From the IMG/VR virus record IMGVR_UViG_2565956613_000004, positions 1 to 14,224 of that record: 14,224 nt of DNA. One strand, written 5' to 3'. Shown here one piece after another: positions 3,922-14,224 of this stretch. Position numbers and translations under genes: made by a program. The notes under the pieces were generated by a model. It had not been told where the DNA came from, ran no database searches, and saw nothing but the letters and a program-made list of their open reading frames with translations. How positions within the stretch are numbered: the first letter of the stretch is position 1; every line of letters starts with the position of its first letter. The stretch is from a virus (taxonomy: Duplodnaviria > Heunggongvirae > Uroviricota > Caudoviricetes).

Positions 3922-4143
3922 ATGCAATCCATTAACTTCCGTACCGCGCGTGGCAACCTTTCTGAAGTGCTCAACAATGTTGAAGCCGGGGAAGAGGTTG
4001 AAATCACCCGCAGAGGCCGTGAGCCAGCAGTAATTGTCAGCAAGGCTACTTTCGAAGCCTACAAAAAAGCGGCGCTGGATGCTGAATTTGCATCCCTGTT
4101 TGACACCCTGGACTCCACCAACAAGGAACTGGTTAACCGATAA
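3922..4143 (+). CDS. phd: Phd antitoxin (prevent host death), 73 aa
   Basis: [49 protein letters not shown]... recognised as P1 Phd; GAGG RBS before ATG 3922 (ORF track opens at an upstream GTG); stop overlaps the doc start (TAATG). Confidence 0.85.
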
Positions 4144-4523
4144 TGAGGCATATATCACCGGAAGAACTTATTGCGCTTCATGATGCGAATATAAGCCGCT
4201 ACGGCGGCCTGCCGGGAATGTCTGATCCGGGTAGGGCAGAGGCCATTATCGGGAGAGTTCAGGCCAGAGTTGCCTACGAAGAGATCACCGACCTTTTCGA
4301 AGTCTCCGCCACCTACCTGGTGGCTACAGCGAGAGGGCATATATTCAATGATGCCAATAAGCGTACCGCGCTAAACAGTGCGCTGCTATTTCTACGCCGT
4401 AACGGGGTGCAGGTATTTGATTCACCTGAACTGGCAGACCTTACTGTAGGCGCTGCGACTGGCGAGATATCTGTATCTTCTGTCGCCGACACGTTACGTA
4501 GATTGTATGGTTCTGCGGAGTAG
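4143..4523 (+). CDS. doc: Doc toxin (death on curing), Fic-fold kinase, 126 aa
   Basis: Fic-type motif [11 protein letters not shown]; size and position right after phd with a 1-nt overlap; sequence recognised as P1 Doc. Confidence 0.9.
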
Positions 4524-4527
4524 ATTA

Positions 4528-4707
4528 ATGGCACGCAAATACAACAAATTGTCCCGTGAAGCGTTAAAGATGCTTCTTGATGGCGCGAGTCGCCGCAAGG
4601 TAAAGCAATACCTGGTTGGTAAGCAAATTGGAGTCAGGACCGCTATTGCTGTGTTATGCCGTCAGGAAATGGTTGTGCTTAAACAGAGAATGCCGGGCAG
4701 CAGATAA
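4528..4707 (+). CDS. pdcA: small basic protein, PdcA-like (post-doc), 59 aa from ATG 4528
   Basis: ORF track 4507..4707; the ATG at 4528 lies 5 nt after the doc stop with GGAG 8 nt upstream; assignment as pdcA is by position in the P1 gene order as I recall it. Confidence 0.45.
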   Translation: MARKYNKLSREALKMLLDGASRRKVKQYLVGKQIGVRTAIAVLCRQEMVVLKQRMPGSR

Positions 4708-4734
4708 AGCCCAATCAGTGATTAAAGGTGTGAT

Positions 4735-5778
4735 GTGAAAGCCGTAATTACTCCCTTTGTACAGAAAGAGCTTGGCCTCGCCACGTTCAAAGTGGATCAG
4801 GAGGTCAGAAAGCTGGTGGAGGCTGGCCGTAAATTTATTATGGAGCCGGTGCCGCGTGAGTTAATCGAGCACATGGAAGACGGCCTCGTTGTTACCGAGC
4901 AAACCATGGCAACAAATGAGGCGTTGCAGCCGTTTTTTAACAGCGATGAACTGTTTCGCCGTATTGGTGGAATTGACGCGCTGGTGGCGTGGTTGCGTAG
5001 GAAAGAGGGTCAATGCCAGGCCGCAGATCGTAGTTGGTGTGACAACCATATTGTCCACGCTGAACGAGACAATAGCGCGGTGTTGTTGTGCTGGCATCAC
5101 GATAACCATTACCGGATGCGTGGTTTTAATGAGCTGAAAGAAACGCTGCACAATAATCGCGTTAACTGGATACTGGATGTCGCCCGTCAGGAAATGGGCC
5201 TTTCAAATAGCCATGATTTAAGTATTCAGGAGCTGTGCTGGTGGGCTTTCATGCGCAACATGATGCACCTGATGCCGGAAGAAGTCTGCCGCATATCAAT
5301 AAATAAGATGAAGGCTACTCCGCAGGATAGCGGACCTCTGAAAGAGGCGGATATTCGCCCGTATGACGATCGCGCTACAGCATATGTTCAGATGATGGAA
5401 GAACGCGCCGCGCCGATGCGTGCAAAAGTATGCCCTGTGGATGTTGACGCCGACCCTGGCATGGCGCATTTCAAAATACCAAAACTTCAATCGCTAAAAT
5501 TGCCCGAGTACATGGATTTTGTGGCTTCCCGTCCATGCTGTGGCTGTGGAGCTGCGGGAGCTGGCGCTCACATTACGCCTTATATCGTTCGTCATAGTCG
5601 ATTATGCGCGCATGACATTTATGCTGTTCCTCTGTGCCAGTCATGCCAGCGTGATATTGAGCGTGACCGCGATAATTGGGAGAAGACGCACGGTAGGCTG
5701 GCGATGCATCAACGATTGTTCTTTGATTACGCGCTTGGAGTCGGCGCTATCACAAGTCATTCGTCGAGCGTTAGATAA
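4735..5778 (+). CDS. pdcB: PdcB-like protein with two Cys/His-rich putative zinc-binding clusters, 347 aa
   Basis: GTG start with AAGGTG 4 nt upstream; clusters [25 protein letters not shown] and CCGCG...H...C.HD...PLCQSCQ suggest a zinc-finger or HNH-like nucleic-acid-binding fold; name from recalled P1 gene order. Confidence 0.65.
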
Positions 5779-6405: not shown

Positions 6406-7599
6406 GTGACCTGGGACGATCACAAGAAGAATTTTGCTCGCCTGGCGCGAGATGGTGGTTACACCATCGCACAATATGCCGCCGAGTTTAATCTCAACCC
6501 AAACACCGCACGTCGTTATCTCCGTGCATTCAAAGAAGACACCGGAACAGCGGACAGCCGTAAGCCAAATAAGCCTGTCAGAAAACCACTAAAAAGCATG
6601 ATCATTGATCACGCTAATGATCAACGTGCAGGTGATCACATTGTGGCTGAAATGGCTGAAAAACAAAGAGTTAATGCTGTTGTCAGTGCCGCAGTCGAGA
6701 ACGCGAAGCGCCAGAATAAGCGCATAAATGATCGTTCTGATGATCATGACGTGATCACCCGCGCCCACCGGACCTTACGTGATCGCCTGGAACGCGACAC
6801 CCTGGATGATGATGGTGAACGCTTTGAATTCGAAGCTGGCGATTACCTGATAGATAACGTTGAAGCGCGGAAGGCCGCGCGCGCTATGTTGCGTCGGTCC
6901 GGGGCCGATGTTCTGGAAACCACTCTTCTGGAAAAGTCTCTTTCTCATCTCCTTATGCTGGAGAACGCCAGGGATACGTGTATTCGCCTGGTGCAGGAAA
7001 TGCGCGATCAGCAAAAAGACGATGATGAAGGTACTCCGCCTGAATACCGTATCGCGAGCATGCTAAACAGCTGTTCCGCGCAGATAAGCAGCCTGATCAA
7101 CACCATTTACAGCATCCGGAATAACTATCGAAAAGAAAGCCGGGAGGCGGAAAAGCACGCTTTGTCTATGGGGCAAGCTGGCATTGTTAAGCTGGCATAC
7201 GAACGAAAGCGTGAAAATAACTGGTCAGTGCTGGAAGCAGCTGAATTCATCGAGGCGCATGGCGGGAAAGTGCCGCCCCTGATGCTGGAGCAAATCAAAG
7301 CCGATCTGCGTGCTCCTAAGACCAATACCGATGATGAGGAAAGGCAAACAGCCGTCGGTGGCCCTTCTCTTGAAGATCTGGACAAAGTTGCGCGAGAACG
7401 GGCCGCCAACCGCCGCGCCGATGCCGCATTGTGGATTGAGCAGCGTAGGGAAGAAATCGCCGATATCGTTGATACAGGCGGTTATGGAGATGTTGATACT
7501 GAAGGTGTATCAAACGACCCATGGCTGGAACAAGACCTGGACGAAGACGAGGAGGAAGACGAAGAAGTTACCCGCAAGCTATACGGGGATGATGATTAA
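6406..7599 (+). CDS. pacA: PacA, terminase small (pac-recognition) subunit, 397 aa
   Basis: GTG start with AAGGAAG RBS; contains the pac hexamer clusters internally; acidic C-terminal tail ([11 protein letters not shown]); stop overlaps the pacB start. Confidence 0.9.
6599..6757. other. pac packaging site: four TGATCA hexamers (6599, 6606, 6618, 6633) and three TGATC(A/G) hexamers (6729, 6741, 6752) flanking the cleavage region
   Basis: Hexamers read directly from the sequence; the 4 + 3 arrangement over about 160 bp inside pacA matches the known Dam-methylation-sensitive P1 pac site. Confidence 0.8.
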
Positions 7600-9083
7600 T
7601 GGCCAGAAGTTGCGTAACGGATCCACGTTGGCGCGAGCTGGTGGCGCTATATCGTTATGACTGGATTGCGGCCGCTGATGTTTTGTTCGGCAAAACACCT
7701 ACCTGGCAGCAGGATCTGATTATTGAGTCTGTGCAGGAACAGGGTAGCAAGACATCTGTTTCGTCTGGTCACGGTACCGGGAAATCAGACATGACTTCTA
7801 TCATGATCATGTTGTTCATAATCATGTATCCAGGTGCCCGTGCCATTATCGTTGCGAACAAAATTCAGCAGGTAATGACCGGTATATTCAAGTACATCAA
7901 GATAAACTGGGCTACTGCCACCAGCCGTTTCCCATGGCTTGCTGATTATTTTGTTCTGACAGAAACCGCTTTCTATGAGATTACTGGTAAAGGTGTATGG
8001 ACTGTAGTACCGAAGGGCTTTCGTCTGGGAAGTGAAGAAGCTCTCGCCGGTGAACACGCAGATCATCTTCTGTATATTATCGATGAAGCCTCCGGTGTCA
8101 GTGATAGAGCTTTCGGTATCATCACCGGTGCTCTTACCGGACAGGATAACCGCATCTTATTGCTGTCACAGCCTACACGCCCAAGCGGCTATTTCTACGA
8201 TACACACCATAAACTGGCCAAGCGTCCTGGTAACCCTGATGGCGTTTATACGGCGATCACGCTTAACAGTGAGGAATCACCGTTGGTAACGCCAGCATTT
8301 ATCAAAATGAAGCTGGCGGAGTACGGCGGGCGTGATAACCCTATGTACATGATTAAGGTACGCGGCCTATTCCCTAAATCACAGGATGGCTTCCTTCTTG
8401 GACGTGATGAGGTTGAACGTGCAACGCGGCGGAAAGTCAAGATTGCAAAAGGATGGGGCTGGCTTGCATGTGTGGACGTTGCTGGTGGTACGGGACGGGA
8501 TAAGTCCGTTATCAATATCATGATGGTGTCCGGCCAGCGAAATAAACGCCGTGTAATCAACTATCGAATGCTGGAATACACAGACGTTACAGAAACGCAG
8601 CTTGCCGCCAAAATTTTCGCAGAATGTAATCCTGAGCGATTCCCAAATATCACCATAGCGATAGACGGCGATGGCCTGGGTAAAGCAACGGCGGATCTGA
8701 TGTACGAGTATTATGGTATTACCGTACAGCGTATACGCTGGGGTAAAAAGATGCATAGCCGTGAAGATAAGAGCCTGTACTTTGATAAACGTGCTTATGC
8801 CAACGTTCAAGCCGCAGAGGCCGTAAAATCTGGTCGTATGAGACTGGATAAGGGTAATGAAACTATTGAGGAAGCGTCGAAAATCCCTGTAGGGATTAAC
8901 TCCGCAGGTCAATGGAAGGTGATGAGTAAGGAGGATATGAAGAAAAAACTCAACCTGCACTCACCAGACCATTGGGATACATATTGTTTCGCTATGCTGG
9001 CTGATTATGTTCCCCAGGATGAAGTGCTTAGCGTCGAAGACGAAGCGCAGGTTGATGAAGCTCTGGCATGGCTTAATGAATAA
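7599..9083 (+). CDS. pacB: PacB, terminase large subunit, 494 aa
   Basis: P-loop-like [10 protein letters not shown] near the N-terminus; ATG overlaps the pacA stop (TAATG); size and position as for P1 PacB. Confidence 0.9.
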
Positions 9084-9107: not shown

Positions 9108-9959
9108 CTATTGCGCGCTTTCGGGGTTGTCGTTTACTGGCTGCCCCTTCTTAGTTTTACGGCTGCGCGTAACTGATGCGGCTGATTTGACCTTTTTCTC
9201 TTCGCGAGTGATGGCAATTTGTTTTTTTACATTTTCAATATCTGCCAGGCGATATATTTTTGCCTGCGGCCAGCGGTCGCAGATGATCGGTTCTATAGAG
9301 TCATAAAGGCTAAATTTTGCTTTCTCGAATTCACCGTTGATGATGATTCCATCACGGAGAGTTTCATCGCAGATAAACACACCACACAGCGGCACATGGT
9401 AACTAACTGATTTACCATCATTGTAGTTAGGGCTACTGGAAATGTAGTGGACGCGCAGCATTGTTTCGCTAAAGCCGTGTACACGCATACGGAATTTTTC
9501 ATCCTCCGGGTACTGCTTCATTAGCTCTTTTGTTGCTTCCAGGTTCTCTATGTATTTCGCACTGTGCTCATTGATCCCCGCGCTTTTCTGGATGCGAATG
9601 TCCTTATCAATCAGATGAATAATGCGGCCAGCGGTCATGTTGACGCTGTTCACAGCTTCTGTCTGATAAGTCGTAACCTTACGCACACCGCGAAGGATGT
9701 TAGGCACAGGATATAAAATAGTCTTTGGGATATTGAGGTCTGGGTACTGTTCCAGTTCCCGCGCCATTAAAGTCCATTTATCAATTTCAGCCTGAATGCT
9801 GTCCGTTTCTTTGAACGGTAGAACGACAACCGGGCGTACAGGACGACCGTCGCTGGCGGCATCAACGTGTTGGGCGCGTGCAACAGCTTTTTTTAGAAAG
9901 AGATCCCTGAAGCTGACGAACTCCTGGTACAGTTGTTCGCCGTAGACATAATTTATCAT
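9108..9959 (-). CDS. c1: C1 repressor of lysis (primary immunity repressor), 283 aa
   Basis: 283-aa protein beginning MINYVYGEQLYQEFVSFRDLF recognised as P1 C1; GGAGGAGGA RBS; preceded by coi and operator sites; matching operators occur elsewhere in the window. Confidence 0.9.
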   Translation of the reverse strand: MINYVYGEQLYQEFVSFRDLFLKKAVARAQHVDAASDGRPVRPVVVLPFKETDSIQAEIDKWTLMARELEQYPDLNIPKTILYPVPNILRGVRKVTTYQTEAVNSVNMTAGRIIHLIDKDIRIQKSAGINEHSAKYIENLEATKELMKQYPEDEKFRMRVHGFSETMLRVHYISSSPNYNDGKSVSYHVPLCGVFICDETLRDGIIINGEFEKAKFSLYDSIEPIICDRWPQAKIYRLADIENVKKQIAITREEKKVKSAASVTRSRKTKKGQPVNDNPESAQ

Positions 9960-10847: not shown

Positions 10848-11069
10848 ATGGGATATTCAGCTGCTAAAGTGTCCACTCATATTGAGCTTGAGAAAAACCG
10901 TGGTTACTGGCGGGCAAAAGGGTTTGATCGTGATAGTTGTCAACTGTCATTATCGCGCGGTGAAGAGAAAATAGAACGCACGCGCGGTCGCTGGCGTTTC
11001 TATGACGAGAACCATAAACAGGTAAAGGCAGAGCCGATCCTGTACACTTTACTTAAAACCATTATCTGA
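10848..11069 (+). CDS. hypothetical 73-aa protein immediately upstream of cre
   Basis: ATG with AGAGGTG RBS at optimal spacing; stop 7 nt before the cre ATG, suggesting co-transcription; no recognisable family. Confidence 0.45.
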   Translation: MGYSAAKVSTHIELEKNRGYWRAKGFDRDSCQLSLSRGEEKIERTRGRWRFYDENHKQVKAEPILYTLLKTII

Positions 11070-11076
11070 GTGTTAA

Positions 11077-12108
11077 ATGTCCAATTTACTGACCGTACAC
11101 CAAAATTTGCCTGCATTACCGGTCGATGCAACGAGTGATGAGGTTCGCAAGAACCTGATGGACATGTTCAGGGATCGCCAGGCGTTTTCTGAGCATACCT
11201 GGAAAATGCTTCTGTCCGTTTGCCGGTCGTGGGCGGCATGGTGCAAGTTGAATAACCGGAAATGGTTTCCCGCAGAACCTGAAGATGTTCGCGATTATCT
11301 TCTATATCTTCAGGCGCGCGGTCTGGCAGTAAAAACTATCCAGCAACATTTGGGCCAGCTAAACATGCTTCATCGTCGGTCCGGGCTGCCACGACCAAGT
11401 GACAGTAATGCTGTTTCACTGGTCATGCGACGGATCCGAAAAGAAAACGTTGATGCCGGTGAACGTGCAAAACAGGCACTGGCGTTCGAACGCACTGATT
11501 TCGACCAGGTTCGTTCACTCATGGAAAATAGCGATCGCTGCCAGGATATACGTAATCTGGCATTTCTGGGGATTGCTTATAACACCCTGTTACGTATAGC
11601 CGAAATTTCCAGGATCAGGGTTAAAGATATCTCACGTACTGACGGTGGGAGAATGTTAATCCATATTGGCAGAACGAAAACGCTGGTTAGCACCGCTGGT
11701 GTAGAGAAGGCACTTAGCCTGGGGGTAACTAAACTGGTTGAGCGATGGATTTCTGTCTCTGGTGTAGCTGATGATCCGAATAACTACCTGTTTTGCCGCG
11801 TCAGAAAAAATGGTGTTGCCGCTCCATCATCCACCAGCCAGCTATCAACTCGCGCCCTGGAAGGGATTTTTGAAGCAACTCACCGATTGATTTACGGGGC
11901 AAAAGATGACTCTGGTCAGCGATACCTGGCCTGGTCTGGACATAGTGCCCGTGTCGGTGCCGCGCGAGATATGGCCCGAGCCGGAGTTTCTATACCGGAG
12001 ATCATGCAAGCTGGTGGCTGGACCAACGTAAATATTGTCATGAACTACATTCGTAACCTGGATAGTGAAACGGGGGCAATGGTGCGCCTGCTGGAAGATG
12101 GCGATTAG
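11077..12108 (+). CDS. cre: Cre tyrosine site-specific recombinase, 343 aa
   Basis: Near-identical to P1 Cre as I recall it (MSNLLTVHQNLPALPVDATSDEVRKNLMDMFRDRQAFSEHTWKMLLSVCRSWAAWCK...); C-terminal catalytic region with HSARVGAARDMARAG and GGWTNVNIVMNYIRNLDSE; differs from my recalled P1 sequence at two positions (IAEISRIRV, APSSTSQ). Confidence 0.97.
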   Translation: MSNLLTVHQNLPALPVDATSDEVRKNLMDMFRDRQAFSEHTWKMLLSVCRSWAAWCKLNNRKWFPAEPEDVRDYLLYLQARGLAVKTIQQHLGQLNMLHRRSGLPRPSDSNAVSLVMRRIRKENVDAGERAKQALAFERTDFDQVRSLMENSDRCQDIRNLAFLGIAYNTLLRIAEISRIRVKDISRTDGGRMLIHIGRTKTLVSTAGVEKALSLGVTKLVERWISVSGVADDPNNYLFCRVRKNGVAAPSSTSQLSTRALEGIFEATHRLIYGAKDDSGQRYLAWSGHSARVGAARDMARAGVSIPEIMQAGGWTNVNIVMNYIRNLDSETGAMVRLLEDGD

Positions 12109-12125
12109 CCGTTCATTTGCTCTTT

Positions 12126-12142
12126 ATTGCTCTAATTATTTG
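12126..12142 (+). promoter_or_regulatory. C1 operator-like site ATTGCTCTAATTATTTG with a partial copy (ATTTGCTCT) just upstream
   Basis: 14 of 17 match to consensus; 18 bp after the cre stop and 17 bp before the 103-aa ORF; resembles the Op2 arrangement that controls ref in P1. Confidence 0.55.
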
Positions 12143-12158
12143 ATATTTATGGTTACAC

Positions 12159-12470
12159 ATGCGGAAGGATTTCAAAATAGACGGAAAATATGTGGTGCTG
12201 TCTGTAAGCTCTCAAATTCAGTCACCATCTGTCATTGTCACCGTAAAGTTGAGCGATAGGATGCCTGATATCGACTCGATATCTGTTGCGTTCCCCGTTA
12301 AAAGCATGCGGAGTGCTGAACATTTTGTGATGAATGCAACGGAGGAGGAAGCACGGCGCGGGCTTACTAGAGTGATGGCGGAATTTGGCGAACTCCTGGG
12401 TAAGGTAAACAATGCCCTTTCAATCAGTTCAGCAAGATCCAAAGCGTTAACAGCTTCCATGATGAAATAA
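12159..12470 (+). CDS. hypothetical 103-aa protein behind a C1 operator (no Cys, one His)
   Basis: ORF track; ends immediately before the hairpin at 12476..12496; weak RBS; preferred over the overlapping minus-strand ORF, which needs a TTG start and spans the hairpin. Confidence 0.4.
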   Translation: MRKDFKIDGKYVVLSVSSQIQSPSVIVTVKLSDRMPDIDSISVAFPVKSMRSAEHFVMNATEEEARRGLTRVMAEFGELLGKVNNALSISSARSKALTASMMK

Positions 12471-12475
12471 AAAAA

Positions 12476-12496
12476 AGCCTGGCAAGGAGCCAGGCT
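12476..12496 (-). terminator. rho-independent terminator for the minus-strand antirepressor-like transcript (stem AGCCTGGC / GCCAGGCT, loop AAGGA, U-run on the minus strand)
   Basis: Plus strand reads A8-GCCTGGC-AAGGA-GCCAGGC; on the minus strand the hairpin is followed by a T8 run; on the plus strand no T-run follows. Confidence 0.5.
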
Positions 12497-12618
12497 GCAC
12501 AAAAGAGCGGGGTTGTATTCCGCATCCAATCAATCAAGAAGGAGTATAGCACACAGGTACTGAAGAGAAAAAATGTGATTCGCGATAGATAAAATAGCCA
12601 CTATTGTTATAATTAATT

Positions 12619-12699
12619 GCCATAATTGAGTTATGGCTTTAGTCAACTACGAAGACATTGCCATTATAGACTCCGTGACATCATTGGCGGCCGAAAGGC
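12619..12699 (+). ncRNA. candidate ~80-nt small RNA: extended -10 promoter (TGTTATAAT at 12605..12613), 5' hairpin GCCATAA-TTGAG-TTATGGC, 3' intrinsic terminator
   Basis: All elements read directly; no convincing ORF (the 72-aa ORF 12633..12851 runs through the terminator); complementary to the 3' UTR of the convergent minus-strand mRNA. Not tested. Confidence 0.2.
12676..12699 (+). terminator. strong rho-independent terminator on the plus strand (GGCGGCC-GAAA-GGCCGCC followed by TTTTTT)
   Basis: Perfect 7-bp GC stem with GAAA tetraloop and a T6 run, read directly; ends the cre-side transcription unit and/or a short transcript from the promoter at 12605..12613. Confidence 0.7.
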
Positions 12700-12711
12700 C
12701 GCCTTTTTTAA

Positions 12712-13770
12712 TCATTCAGCCGCCACCGGTTTTAACAAGCCAGCATCGAGCAGTTTACGCGTCAACCACTGTTGGCCTTTCCCCGTTAATTGAGGCGTCA
12801 GCCGTATCTGATAGCCATCTTCATCATCCAGCACCACTTCTTTCACTGTGAAATATCCGGCGTTTATGTACTGCTGAAACGGTACATTTTTACGTCCGCC
12901 GGACGCAATCAGGATGCCGTTCTCCCGTAACCAGGTAAACAACGCGTTTTGCTTAAGCCCAACAACCTTTGCAAAATTTCCAATCAGGATCCCCTTGGCC
13001 CCTGATACCCGGTCGGCAAAATCGACTTTAGGGGCGGCGGCCACCAGCTGCTGATTTAGCTGGTGGGCTTTCTGTTCCAGAAGTTGCTTTTGTTCAGCCA
13101 GCTCGGCAGCCAGGCGCAGAGCTTCGGGGAGTGTTTGGGGAATCACTGGAGAAGCAGTGCTAGCCTGCTGCAATTCCTCCAGTTTGTCGATCAGCGAACG
13201 GCGGACCGCTTTTGACTCGCGCGCGGCAACTCTCAGGGCTTGTTTGTAGGTCATGGAGATAGTTTCAGATGTTGTGTTGTTTAATTTTTGCACTACGAAA
13301 ATTTCGTAGTACTCACCATCCAGTTCATCCTTAACTCTGGCAATAAAATCATTATTGCGAACTGGTTTTTCGCTACATAATTTCCGCGCTTCATTGACCA
13401 TCTTTAACAGCGTCTGGCTGTCGATTGTGTCTCCGGTGTTGGGGATAGCATCCATGGCCGTTGCTGGTGTGGTTGCTGTCAAAGGCTTTGTAACGACAAC
13501 ATCTGGTTTGCTTGCTTTCATTCTGTGTGCCTCCTTGCGTGTTTCGGCTGCGACGGTTGCGTAATTCAGATGCCCCTGTTCGAGCAGGTATTCGCGAATA
13601 TCAGACAGCAGGATACGGTGAACCGCGTTCTTGTCCTTTCTCCGGTAAAGTTGTTTGGTGATCATGAAGTAGTTGGCAATAACACCCGGTATATCCCTGG
13701 TACTGATACAGGCAGTGTGCTGTTCAATTGCCTCAATCATCTCTTCACGGGTGACTAATGACGTTCTCAT
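12712..13770 (-). CDS. antirepressor-like protein with a C-terminal KilA-C/ANT-type domain, 352 aa
   Basis: Strong GGAGGG RBS 4 nt before the ATG; C-terminal segment FADRVSGAKGILIGNFAKVVGLKQNALFTWLRENGIL...NVPFQQYINAGYFTVKEV...TPQLTGKGQQWL resembles phage antirepressor C-terminal (KilA-C/ANT) domains; the N-terminal ~80 aa may be Rha-like, which is uncertain. Confidence 0.75.
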   Translation of the reverse strand: MRTSLVTREEMIEAIEQHTACISTRDIPGVIANYFMITKQLYRRKDKNAVHRILLSDIREYLLEQGHLNYATVAAETRKEAHRMKASKPDVVVTKPLTATTPATAMDAIPNTGDTIDSQTLLKMVNEARKLCSEKPVRNNDFIARVKDELDGEYYEIFVVQKLNNTTSETISMTYKQALRVAARESKAVRRSLIDKLEELQQASTASPVIPQTLPEALRLAAELAEQKQLLEQKAHQLNQQLVAAAPKVDFADRVSGAKGILIGNFAKVVGLKQNALFTWLRENGILIASGGRKNVPFQQYINAGYFTVKEVVLDDEDGYQIRLTPQLTGKGQQWLTRKLLDAGLLKPVAAE

Positions 13771-13988
13771 AGTCCCTCCTGAGCAGAAGCGTTAACAGGG
13801 AGGCACCAGTAACTGAGAGAATTGCGCGAATCGGTAGAAAAACGGGCGGAGAAAATGCAGGGAGCATCCGGAAGCTGAGAACGTGCCTCATCTTCTGTTG
13901 GTGCGATAACGAAGTGATAGTGACGTTTTTGACAAGAATAGAAGCGCCAGATGAATTCAGGGCGTGCGCAAGGATTGGCATTAACCAT
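13767..13988 (-). CDS. possible 73-aa ORF upstream of and overlapping (ATGA) the antirepressor-like gene
   Basis: ORF track; GAGG 9 nt upstream of the ATG; the stop overlapping the downstream ATG is forced by the frame, so support is weak. Confidence 0.25.
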   Translation of the reverse strand: MVNANPCARPEFIWRFYSCQKRHYHFVIAPTEDEARSQLPDAPCIFSARFSTDSRNSLSYWCLPVNASAQEGL

Positions 13989-14224
13989 AGTTACGGCCTC
14001 ACTAACAGGTTTAACAACCTGCTACCCGCTGCTAAACAGGTGGCAGGACGTGACGGGGTTAGCAGACTGGCGTTAGTGAAACCAGCAGGCCGAAGCCTCC
14101 CCATCACGCCCCACCATAATTTGGGCGTAACGCGGTTTTACGGACACAAAAATACCGCAATATCGGATATCTGCGGTTGTCCACACTAACATTCAGGCTG
14201 CTAAACCCGGTCGCAGAATTTGCT

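Follow-up and report, generated by a model that had tools for sequence, protein, structure and literature searches.

The short promoter-terminator unit between c8 and the antirepressor gene of the window (the whole 14,224-nucleotide stretch of DNA analysed here) is best explained as the orphaned promoter-attenuator leader of the P1 gene ref, a reading that we hold at a probability of roughly 70%. Facing terminators would here insulate two convergent gene modules from each other, and any short RNA read from the unit would be a by-product. The evidence consists of homology and colinearity with the c8-ref region of P1-like phages, the position at which that homology breaks off, one junction shared by the relatives that carry the same arrangement, and strong conservation of both terminators next to a leader that varies at a roughly neutral rate. 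The leader RNA is thus most likely an ordinary relic and not a purpose-built antisense RNA.

Gene content of the window

The window is, as read from its sequence, a segment of a P1-like phage-plasmid, and its ORF layout agrees with that of the immC-lox-cre segment of P1. The plus strand carries the modules pacAB, lox, cra, cre and c8, and a c4-icd-ant1 operon runs towards them from the opposite side. Based on the ORF layout, pacA was placed at 6406-7599, pacB at 7599-9083 and cra at 10848-11069, with c1 as a 283-aa ORF on the minus strand (9108-9959). The cre gene (11077-12108, plus strand), encoding a 343-aa integrase-family protein, forms the left module together with c8 (12159-12470, plus strand), a 103-aa ORF that aligns with the annotated c8 of phiW39, P7 and P1. 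Five sites in the window match the C1 operator consensus with three or fewer mismatches, against 0.10 expected. The closest plasmid relative, L004 (NZ_CP142921.1; 99.8% identical at the leader), has an extra ash-icd-ant cassette (4122-5590) between pacB and c1, which is absent from the window, where pacB runs to 9083 and c1 begins at 9108.

The minus-strand gene at 12712-13770, called antirepressor-like in the original prediction, encodes a 352-aa antirepressor with a KilAC domain (Pfam PF03374, 1.6e-31). The protein is 73% identical to P1 Ant1, and the gene is approximately 80% identical in nucleotides to ant1/ant2 of P1, P7 and RCS47 (megablast). The upstream gene of the operon is an icd homolog (13767-13988, minus strand) that overlaps the annotated icd in the P1, P7 and RCS47 matches; a 99.8%-identical plasmid bears an Icd-like annotation on it and has the same gene order as the window. 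The C4 antisense RNA gene lies at 14036-14121 on the minus strand (Rfam RF01695, 70 bits versus a gathering score of 45, E 3.2e-12). Consistent with these assignments, a megablast search with 12100-14224 returned c8 in the phiW39 and P7 immC records and ant1/ant2-icd-c4 in P1, P7 and RCS47. Given a complete c4-icd-ant operon encoding a KilAC protein that is ~73% identical to P1 Ant1, the gene is a genuine ant1 homolog. As the C4 RNA is encoded in the same window, in its normal place and arrangement, ant already has its normal RNA control, and this weighs against a second antisense control of the kind considered below.

Homology to the P1 ref leader

From 12440 to 12709, the window is colinear with the c8-ref intergenic region of P1 (1800-2071), phiW39 and P7, with a mean column identity of 92% in an alignment of window positions 12440-12760 with the three phages. 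The c8-side region is 92.8% identical to phiW39 and 86.5% identical to the P7 immC record by megablast. As in the P1 ref leader, the homologous segment sits directly downstream of c8 and ends in a GC hairpin with a T-run, and the likeness to P1 extends to the hairpin stem, a conserved block within the leader and a terminator on the minus strand. In P1, P7 and phiW39, the hairpin GGCGGCC-ATTA-GGCCGCC-T8 sits 5 nt before the ATG of ref. The P1 record (NC_005856) annotates P2ref at 1957-1985 (as 'promoter 2 for ref', after the original study of the gene) and the operator Oref at 1962-1978, as well as a second predicted promoter, P1ref. A promoter-operator and an attenuator ahead of ref were proposed in 1988 (Windle, Laufer and Hays). 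The gene belongs to the lytic cycle and is under C1 control; RT-qPCR showed its induction once C1 was inactivated (Ronayne et al. 2016, PMC4713147), and its 5' region is bound and silenced by H-NS (PMC4713147).

The window differs from the P1 ref region in lacking ref and in having a convergent ant 2 nt past the T-run. Homology to P1, P7 and phiW39 stops with the T-run, whose final T is 12709; the stop codon of ant occupies 12712-12714, homology to ant begins at approximately 12722-12728, and the last two Ant codons differ from those of P1. The recombination junction between ref leader and ant, defined by this switch in homology, falls at 12710-12722 and has no strand. Ref and Mat gave no match in the window by tblastn. 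A leader controlling a downstream ref was also considered for the window and ruled out, ref being absent and the convergent ant standing in its place.

It would appear that ref, probably along with the genes that follow it, gave way to an inverted c4-icd-ant cassette, with the breakpoint precisely behind the last T of the T-run. The idea that the unit had been built around ant did not survive the comparison: ant is joined to the same intergenic region that separates c8 from ref in P1, P7 and phiW39, ref having been replaced at the T-run. The promoter-terminator unit is therefore older than its juxtaposition with ant and is the same in ref-carrying phages, which argues against a role dedicated to ant.

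Two facing terminators

The plus-strand intrinsic terminator (12686-12709), the 'attenuator' hairpin of the ref leader with its T6, lies at the module boundary. Its stem and loop, GGCGGCC-GAAA-GGCCGCC, span 12686-12703 with 7 of 7 G-C pairs and a loop of 4, and the six Ts follow at 12704-12709. Its P1 homolog is 2046-2071, ending 5 nt ahead of the ref ATG; relatives share a practically unchanged stem, identical to that of P1, but differ in the loop. The GC hairpin and T6 had been predicted correctly, but the predicted feature end at 12699 cuts the 3' arm of the terminator, which in fact ends at 12709. The T-run itself is T6 in the window versus T8 in P1.

A G+C-rich stem, a short loop and a U-tract are found together on the plus strand only. 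In the minus-strand reading, AAUGAUG takes the place of a U-tract after the GC hairpin; a bidirectional terminator also serving ant was for this reason rejected as a canonical one. The next canonical minus-strand terminator past ant lies at 12469-12496, with a stem at 12496-12476 (8 pairs, 6 of them G-C) and the tail TTTTTTTATT, whose T-run extends to the c8 stop codon; P1 has it too, at 1855-1835. On the plus strand, no T-run follows the hairpin next to c8, so that transcription from cre-c8 would meet its first terminator at 12686-12709.

Since the GC hairpin lacks a U-tract on the minus strand, transcripts of ant may run on to 12496-12476. The claim that the ant mRNA ends only at 12476-12496 agrees with the position of the next canonical terminator, but that terminator is equally conserved in ref phages, which have no nearby convergent gene. 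Read-through of this kind would plausibly leave a 236-nt 3' UTR complementary to the plus-strand RNA and spanning the whole of it, and this opens the way for a cis-antisense or convergent type of control. The plus-strand RNA would then pair with the 3' UTR of ant read-through transcripts, or the converging polymerases would collide, with the processing or stability of the ant mRNA altered and a further layer of immunity added to that of C4. We regard such control as improbable. The two RNAs would overlap only past the ant stop codon, where collision or cleavage would spare the coding region, and the GC hairpin immediately past the stop would still be expected to cap or protect the 3' end of the message. 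Nor is the minus-strand terminator particular to this setting, given its equal conservation next to ref. The geometry put forward in the original prediction does permit complementarity between the RNA and the ant 3' UTR; of a dedicated role in the control of ant, there was no sign.

If the unit is an orphaned ref leader, the plus-strand terminator would keep transcripts of cre-c8 and of the leftover ref promoter from running into ant in antisense, and the minus-strand terminator after c8 would stop ant read-through before it reaches c8 and cre. Together, the two would act as a face-to-face insulator at the module boundary. Any firing of the promoter would yield a terminated leader RNA of ~75-90 nt as a by-product, and its complementarity to the ant 3' UTR would be a matter of geometry only. 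The other option that had been raised, that the terminator merely ends read-through from cre, is retained as part of this explanation, in which the leftover ref leader is also involved.

A side observation concerns the segment between c8 and the ref promoter, where a small minus-strand transcript may be encoded (window 12469-12571; P1 NC_005856 approximately 1828-1930). P1 has a promoter-like TTTTCA-17-TATACT with TG there, running from 1930 to 1902 (window equivalent approximately 12571 to 12543), and the terminator at 12496-12476, ending at the c8 stop, follows after ~70 nt. The segment has a nucleotide diversity of 0.005-0.05, compared with 0.16-0.17 at c8 third positions, in ref-linked and ant-linked elements alike. 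It folds at -23.2 kcal/mol (z = -3.1), and the P1 record has no annotation at this position. Conserved next to c8 in all P1-like elements, the candidate is perhaps of wider use.

Promoter-like site and operator homolog upstream of the leader

A promoter-like site at 12586-12613 (plus strand) combines TAGATA at 12586-12591, a 16-bp spacer and the extended -10 TGTTATAAT at 12605-12613, where the extended -10 had been predicted. With 10 of 12 matches plus the TG, it is the best match in 11000-14224. Scans of the region found promoter-like and terminator-like sites in numbers not above chance (4 versus 3.7 ± 2.1 and 6 versus 3.3 ± 1.9 expected, respectively), so that the credibility of both elements rests on their homology to the annotated P1 ref promoter region. 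The predicted order of a promoter and, ~75-90 nt further on, a strong intrinsic terminator with no ORF in between was confirmed, and the homolog of this promoter in the P1 record is annotated as P2ref, together with a C1 operator. A terminated leader RNA of ~75-90 nt is accordingly a plausible product of the unit, judging by these elements.

The assignment of individual elements had to be revised. TGTTATAAT does not correspond to the P1 -10, whose homolog is 14 bp further downstream, but to the place that the operator Oref occupies in P1. The homolog of Oref itself (12603-12619, plus strand), located by the alignment and the P1 annotation, is degraded, reading ATTGTTATAATTAATTG in the window versus ATTGCTCTAATTGATTG in P1. 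It has four mismatches to the consensus, among them both core C positions, which are kept in the eight operators compared from P1 and the window, and a search for C1 operators with three or fewer mismatches misses it. The core itself went from ATTGCTCTAAT in P1 to ATTGTTATAAT in the window. The homolog of the P2ref extended -10 lies at 12618-12626 (plus strand) and reads TGCCATAAT, versus TGCTATAAT in P1; the first base of the -10 has changed, TATAAT becoming CATAAT. At this position (12621), 51 of 53 unique sequences have T, and two, including the window, have C.

The exact promoter string of the window, ATTGTTATAATTAATTGCCATAAT, was found in only five of the related loci compared, and the G at 12588, an A-to-G change that turns the -35 from TAAATA into the better TAGATA, is present in the window alone among the 53 unique sequences. 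Within the sequences compared, the promoter variant with TGTTATAAT is specific to the sublineage of the window. The site CGATAAA, reported as an H-NS site in the P1 ref 5' region (PMC4713147), reads CGATAGA in the window (12583-12589), and the G at 12588 that alters it is the same one that improves the -35 of the new promoter.

How active the leftover promoter might be bears on a further alternative, in which it is inactive or negligible, the hairpin only ends transcription of cre-c8 and no discrete short RNA is made. The position of 12686-12709 as the first plus-strand terminator past cre-c8 would suit this alternative, as would the weak -35 elements (TAGATA in the window, CTATCA-like in P1) and the promoter-like matches being no commoner than chance. 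An extended -10 can do without a good -35, however, and TGTTATAAT in the window is a consensus extended -10. The homologous P1 promoter, moreover, carries the annotation 'promoter 2 for ref', which goes back to the first study of ref. Work on P1 can be cited on both sides, with binding and silencing of the ref 5' region by H-NS in favor and induction of ref upon C1 inactivation, seen by RT-qPCR, against (both PMC4713147). Overall, a terminator with no short RNA is an unlikely description of the unit.

The orphaned-leader reading does not by itself account for everything that happened to the promoter. In the sublineage of the window, three changes build a better upstream promoter (TGTTATAAT and the -35 change from TAAATA to TAGATA) and the operator core is lost, a combination that simple decay does not predict. 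With the core gone and the new extended -10 placed 14 bp upstream, the RNA may escape C1 repression in this sublineage. A near-consensus extended -10 free of the C1 operator core could allow the RNA to be made in lysogens, which is a point in favor of antisense control of ant. In most relatives, including most ant-linked elements, Oref is intact, however, and there the RNA would be off in lysogens, precisely when ant needs silencing. A TATAAT-like -10 is kept in all ant-linked leader haplotypes (10 of 10), which also suits antisense control, and it could mean that the promoter is still under selection. It is doubtful, though conceivable for the sublineage of the window, that the orphan leader has been re-purposed into a constitutive ~90-nt RNA that would tune 3'-end processing or stability of the ant mRNA beside C4, by pairing or by head-on transcription.

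The motif ATTGCT[C/A]TAAT deserves separate mention. Depending on one base, it reads as a C1 operator core (CTCTAAT) or as an extended -10 (TGCTATAAT), and it occurs at 12126-12142 and 12603-12619 in the window and at 1485-1501 and 1962-1978 in P1 (L001). The cre-c8 spacer has the promoter-like form in P1 and the operator-like form in the window, and the Oref site shows the reverse. That the operator core and the extended -10 are one base apart is perhaps of wider use.

Relatives carrying ref or ant

Loci were gathered via the C8 protein and the junction pattern and combined with the window and annotated records, giving 101 loci with the c8-terminator anchor. Past the T-run, 68 of these continue with ref and 30 with ant, and the remaining 3 have other insertions upstream of the hairpin. 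The junction, TTTTTT followed by AATCAYTCAGCCGC, is identical in every ant-linked locus (30/30). At 88-99.8% identity, the convergent arrangement of c8 and ant recurs in 56 plasmid records and in 54 complete genomes of E. coli.

Ref-linked and ant-linked loci do not have separate sets of leader haplotypes; these have been shuffled between the two classes. One leader (L091) is P1-like on its left side and window-like on its right, and two ref-linked loci (L082 and L084) have a leader otherwise seen with ant. The hairpin and T-run therefore belong to the left, c8-side module and mark the boundary of the cassette. A cassette boundary at this place fits the variable region 'RD-1' of P1-like plasmids, in which pSvP1 carries icd-ant1/2 homologs (PMC6906374). 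Three IMG/VR contigs (L073, L033 and L080) have foreign DNA inside the leader, upstream of the hairpin; the insert of L073 starts with GGGGTCGTTTGCGGGAGGGGGCGGAATCC and resembles a transposon terminal repeat. The region downstream of c8 is thus suggested to be a hot spot for insertions.

Sequence diversity was calculated as mean pairwise differences per site for 10 ant-linked haplotypes and 57 ref-linked sequences. It was lowest in the minus-strand terminator (0.007 ant-linked, 0.005 ref-linked) and the plus-strand terminator (0.015 in both classes), and both terminators are strongly conserved whichever gene follows. The promoter/operator region reached 0.175 in ant-linked and 0.087 in ref-linked elements, the leader body 0.164 and 0.052, and the third codon positions of c8 0.171 and 0.162, respectively. 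In ant-linked elements, promoter and leader body hence drift at about the synonymous rate, which hints at relaxed constraint, although this comparison of the two classes is weak because it is confounded by mosaic recombination as well as by the small sample of 10 ant-linked haplotypes. A leader body varying at a near-neutral rate is not what would be expected of an antisense RNA acting on ant.

Structure and coding potential of the leader RNA

No credible ORF had been predicted in the leader, and this was borne out, as the start codons of both mechanical ORFs are not conserved. A leader peptide at 12626-12793 was rejected on these grounds (G at 12628 in 30 of 53 unique sequences), as was one at 12633-12851 (A at 12633 in 3 of 53). 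The 7-bp hairpin predicted directly after the -10 is present as the inverted repeat GCCATAA-TTGAG-TTATGGC (12619-12637, plus strand), but it is confined to the sublineage of the window, being absent from P1, P7, phiW39 and the other leader haplotypes, and it lies outside the minimum-energy and consensus folds. Covariation had been named as a check on the hairpins. RNAalifold on 17 diverse leaders recovered the terminator in the consensus, with two one-sided changes that each keep a wobble pair, and returned no other conserved structure and no compensatory pairs; covariation speaks neither for nor against any leader structure beyond the terminator.

In the P1 leader, with the 3' arm of the terminator blocked, GAGCCGC near the 5' end can pair with GCGGCC of the 5' arm (-18.0 versus -25.4 kcal/mol), and in this fold model the pairing is a plausible antiterminator. 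It requires a transcript that starts at or before P1 1987, upstream of the expected P2ref start, and may therefore concern mostly transcripts that read through from c8. The P1 segment GCCGC that is able to pair with the 5' arm has become TTATGGC in the window, where transcripts starting at 12620 or later have only weak alternative pairings. Termination at the window hairpin would therefore likely be constitutive.

A block within the leader, GTCAACTACGAAGAC (12642-12656, plus strand), scarcely varies among 53 unique leaders, regardless of the gene downstream. It invites the thought of a trans-acting RNA of the Hfq-binding type, conserved in P1-like elements and with targets elsewhere in the phage or host; the terminator with its U6-U8 tail would suit the architecture of such an RNA, and the fold z-score of the leader (-4.2) points the same way. 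Searches for family and target relationships gave a different picture. Rfam at gathering thresholds returned only C4 (14036-14121) in the whole window, and a permissive scan of 12440-12760 gave generic sRNA-like matches that track the terminators and are far below gathering scores (best plus-strand scores 15-21 bits versus gathering 37-55), with no C4 match in this interval even at E up to 10. The block has no complementary site elsewhere in the window, and the best predicted duplex of the leader RNA with the immI operon RNA was equalled or beaten by 14 of 100 shuffles. A P1vir/hfq preprint contains nothing on the leader region. Conservation of the block could just as well reflect the alternative pairing of the leader or a DNA site, and a trans-acting function is very unlikely.

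Implications and comparison with known RNA systems

If the plain reading of an orphaned ref leader is right, P1-like phage-plasmids swap cassettes exactly at terminator boundaries, and leftover promoter-leader units can mimic small RNA genes in sequence-only scans. Should it instead be true that the orphan leader RNA affects expression of the antirepressor, a phage immunity switch would be under RNA control exerted at the mRNA 3' end, and plasmids that occur naturally in E. coli would lend themselves to its study.

Three known systems bear a resemblance to the unit. The sar RNA of the phage P22 immI region is a small ORF-less RNA convergent to ant that overlaps the ant ribosome-binding region and blocks translation. 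The leader RNA of the window (approximately 12620-12709) would overlap only sequence past the ant stop codon and has no complementarity of the sar type to the translation-initiation region of ant, which starts at 13770. The C4 RNA of P1 and P7 immI (RF01695) is an RNA regulator of the same antirepressor operon; according to its annotation, it is transcribed together with icd-ant, ahead of the two genes, and targets sites at the 5' end of their mRNA, in contrast to the window leader, which has no match to C4.

A parallel in arrangement is the PaskilA (P53as) RNA of P1, likewise a short transcript convergent with ant, with a terminator T-run that abuts the ant stop codon (start site L085:1001, terminator L085:1147-1184, ant1 stop at L085:1185). 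It has no sequence homology to the window leader, is ~180 nt by its coordinates versus ~75-90 nt, and is annotated as antisense to kilA, covering the kilA 5' region and the PkilA promoter, and not to ant. The existence in canonical P1 of another short convergent RNA at this position can be counted in favor of antisense control of ant. As P53as ends at the ant stop in P1, a short convergent RNA at the ant stop codon is a feature of the native neighborhood of ant too.
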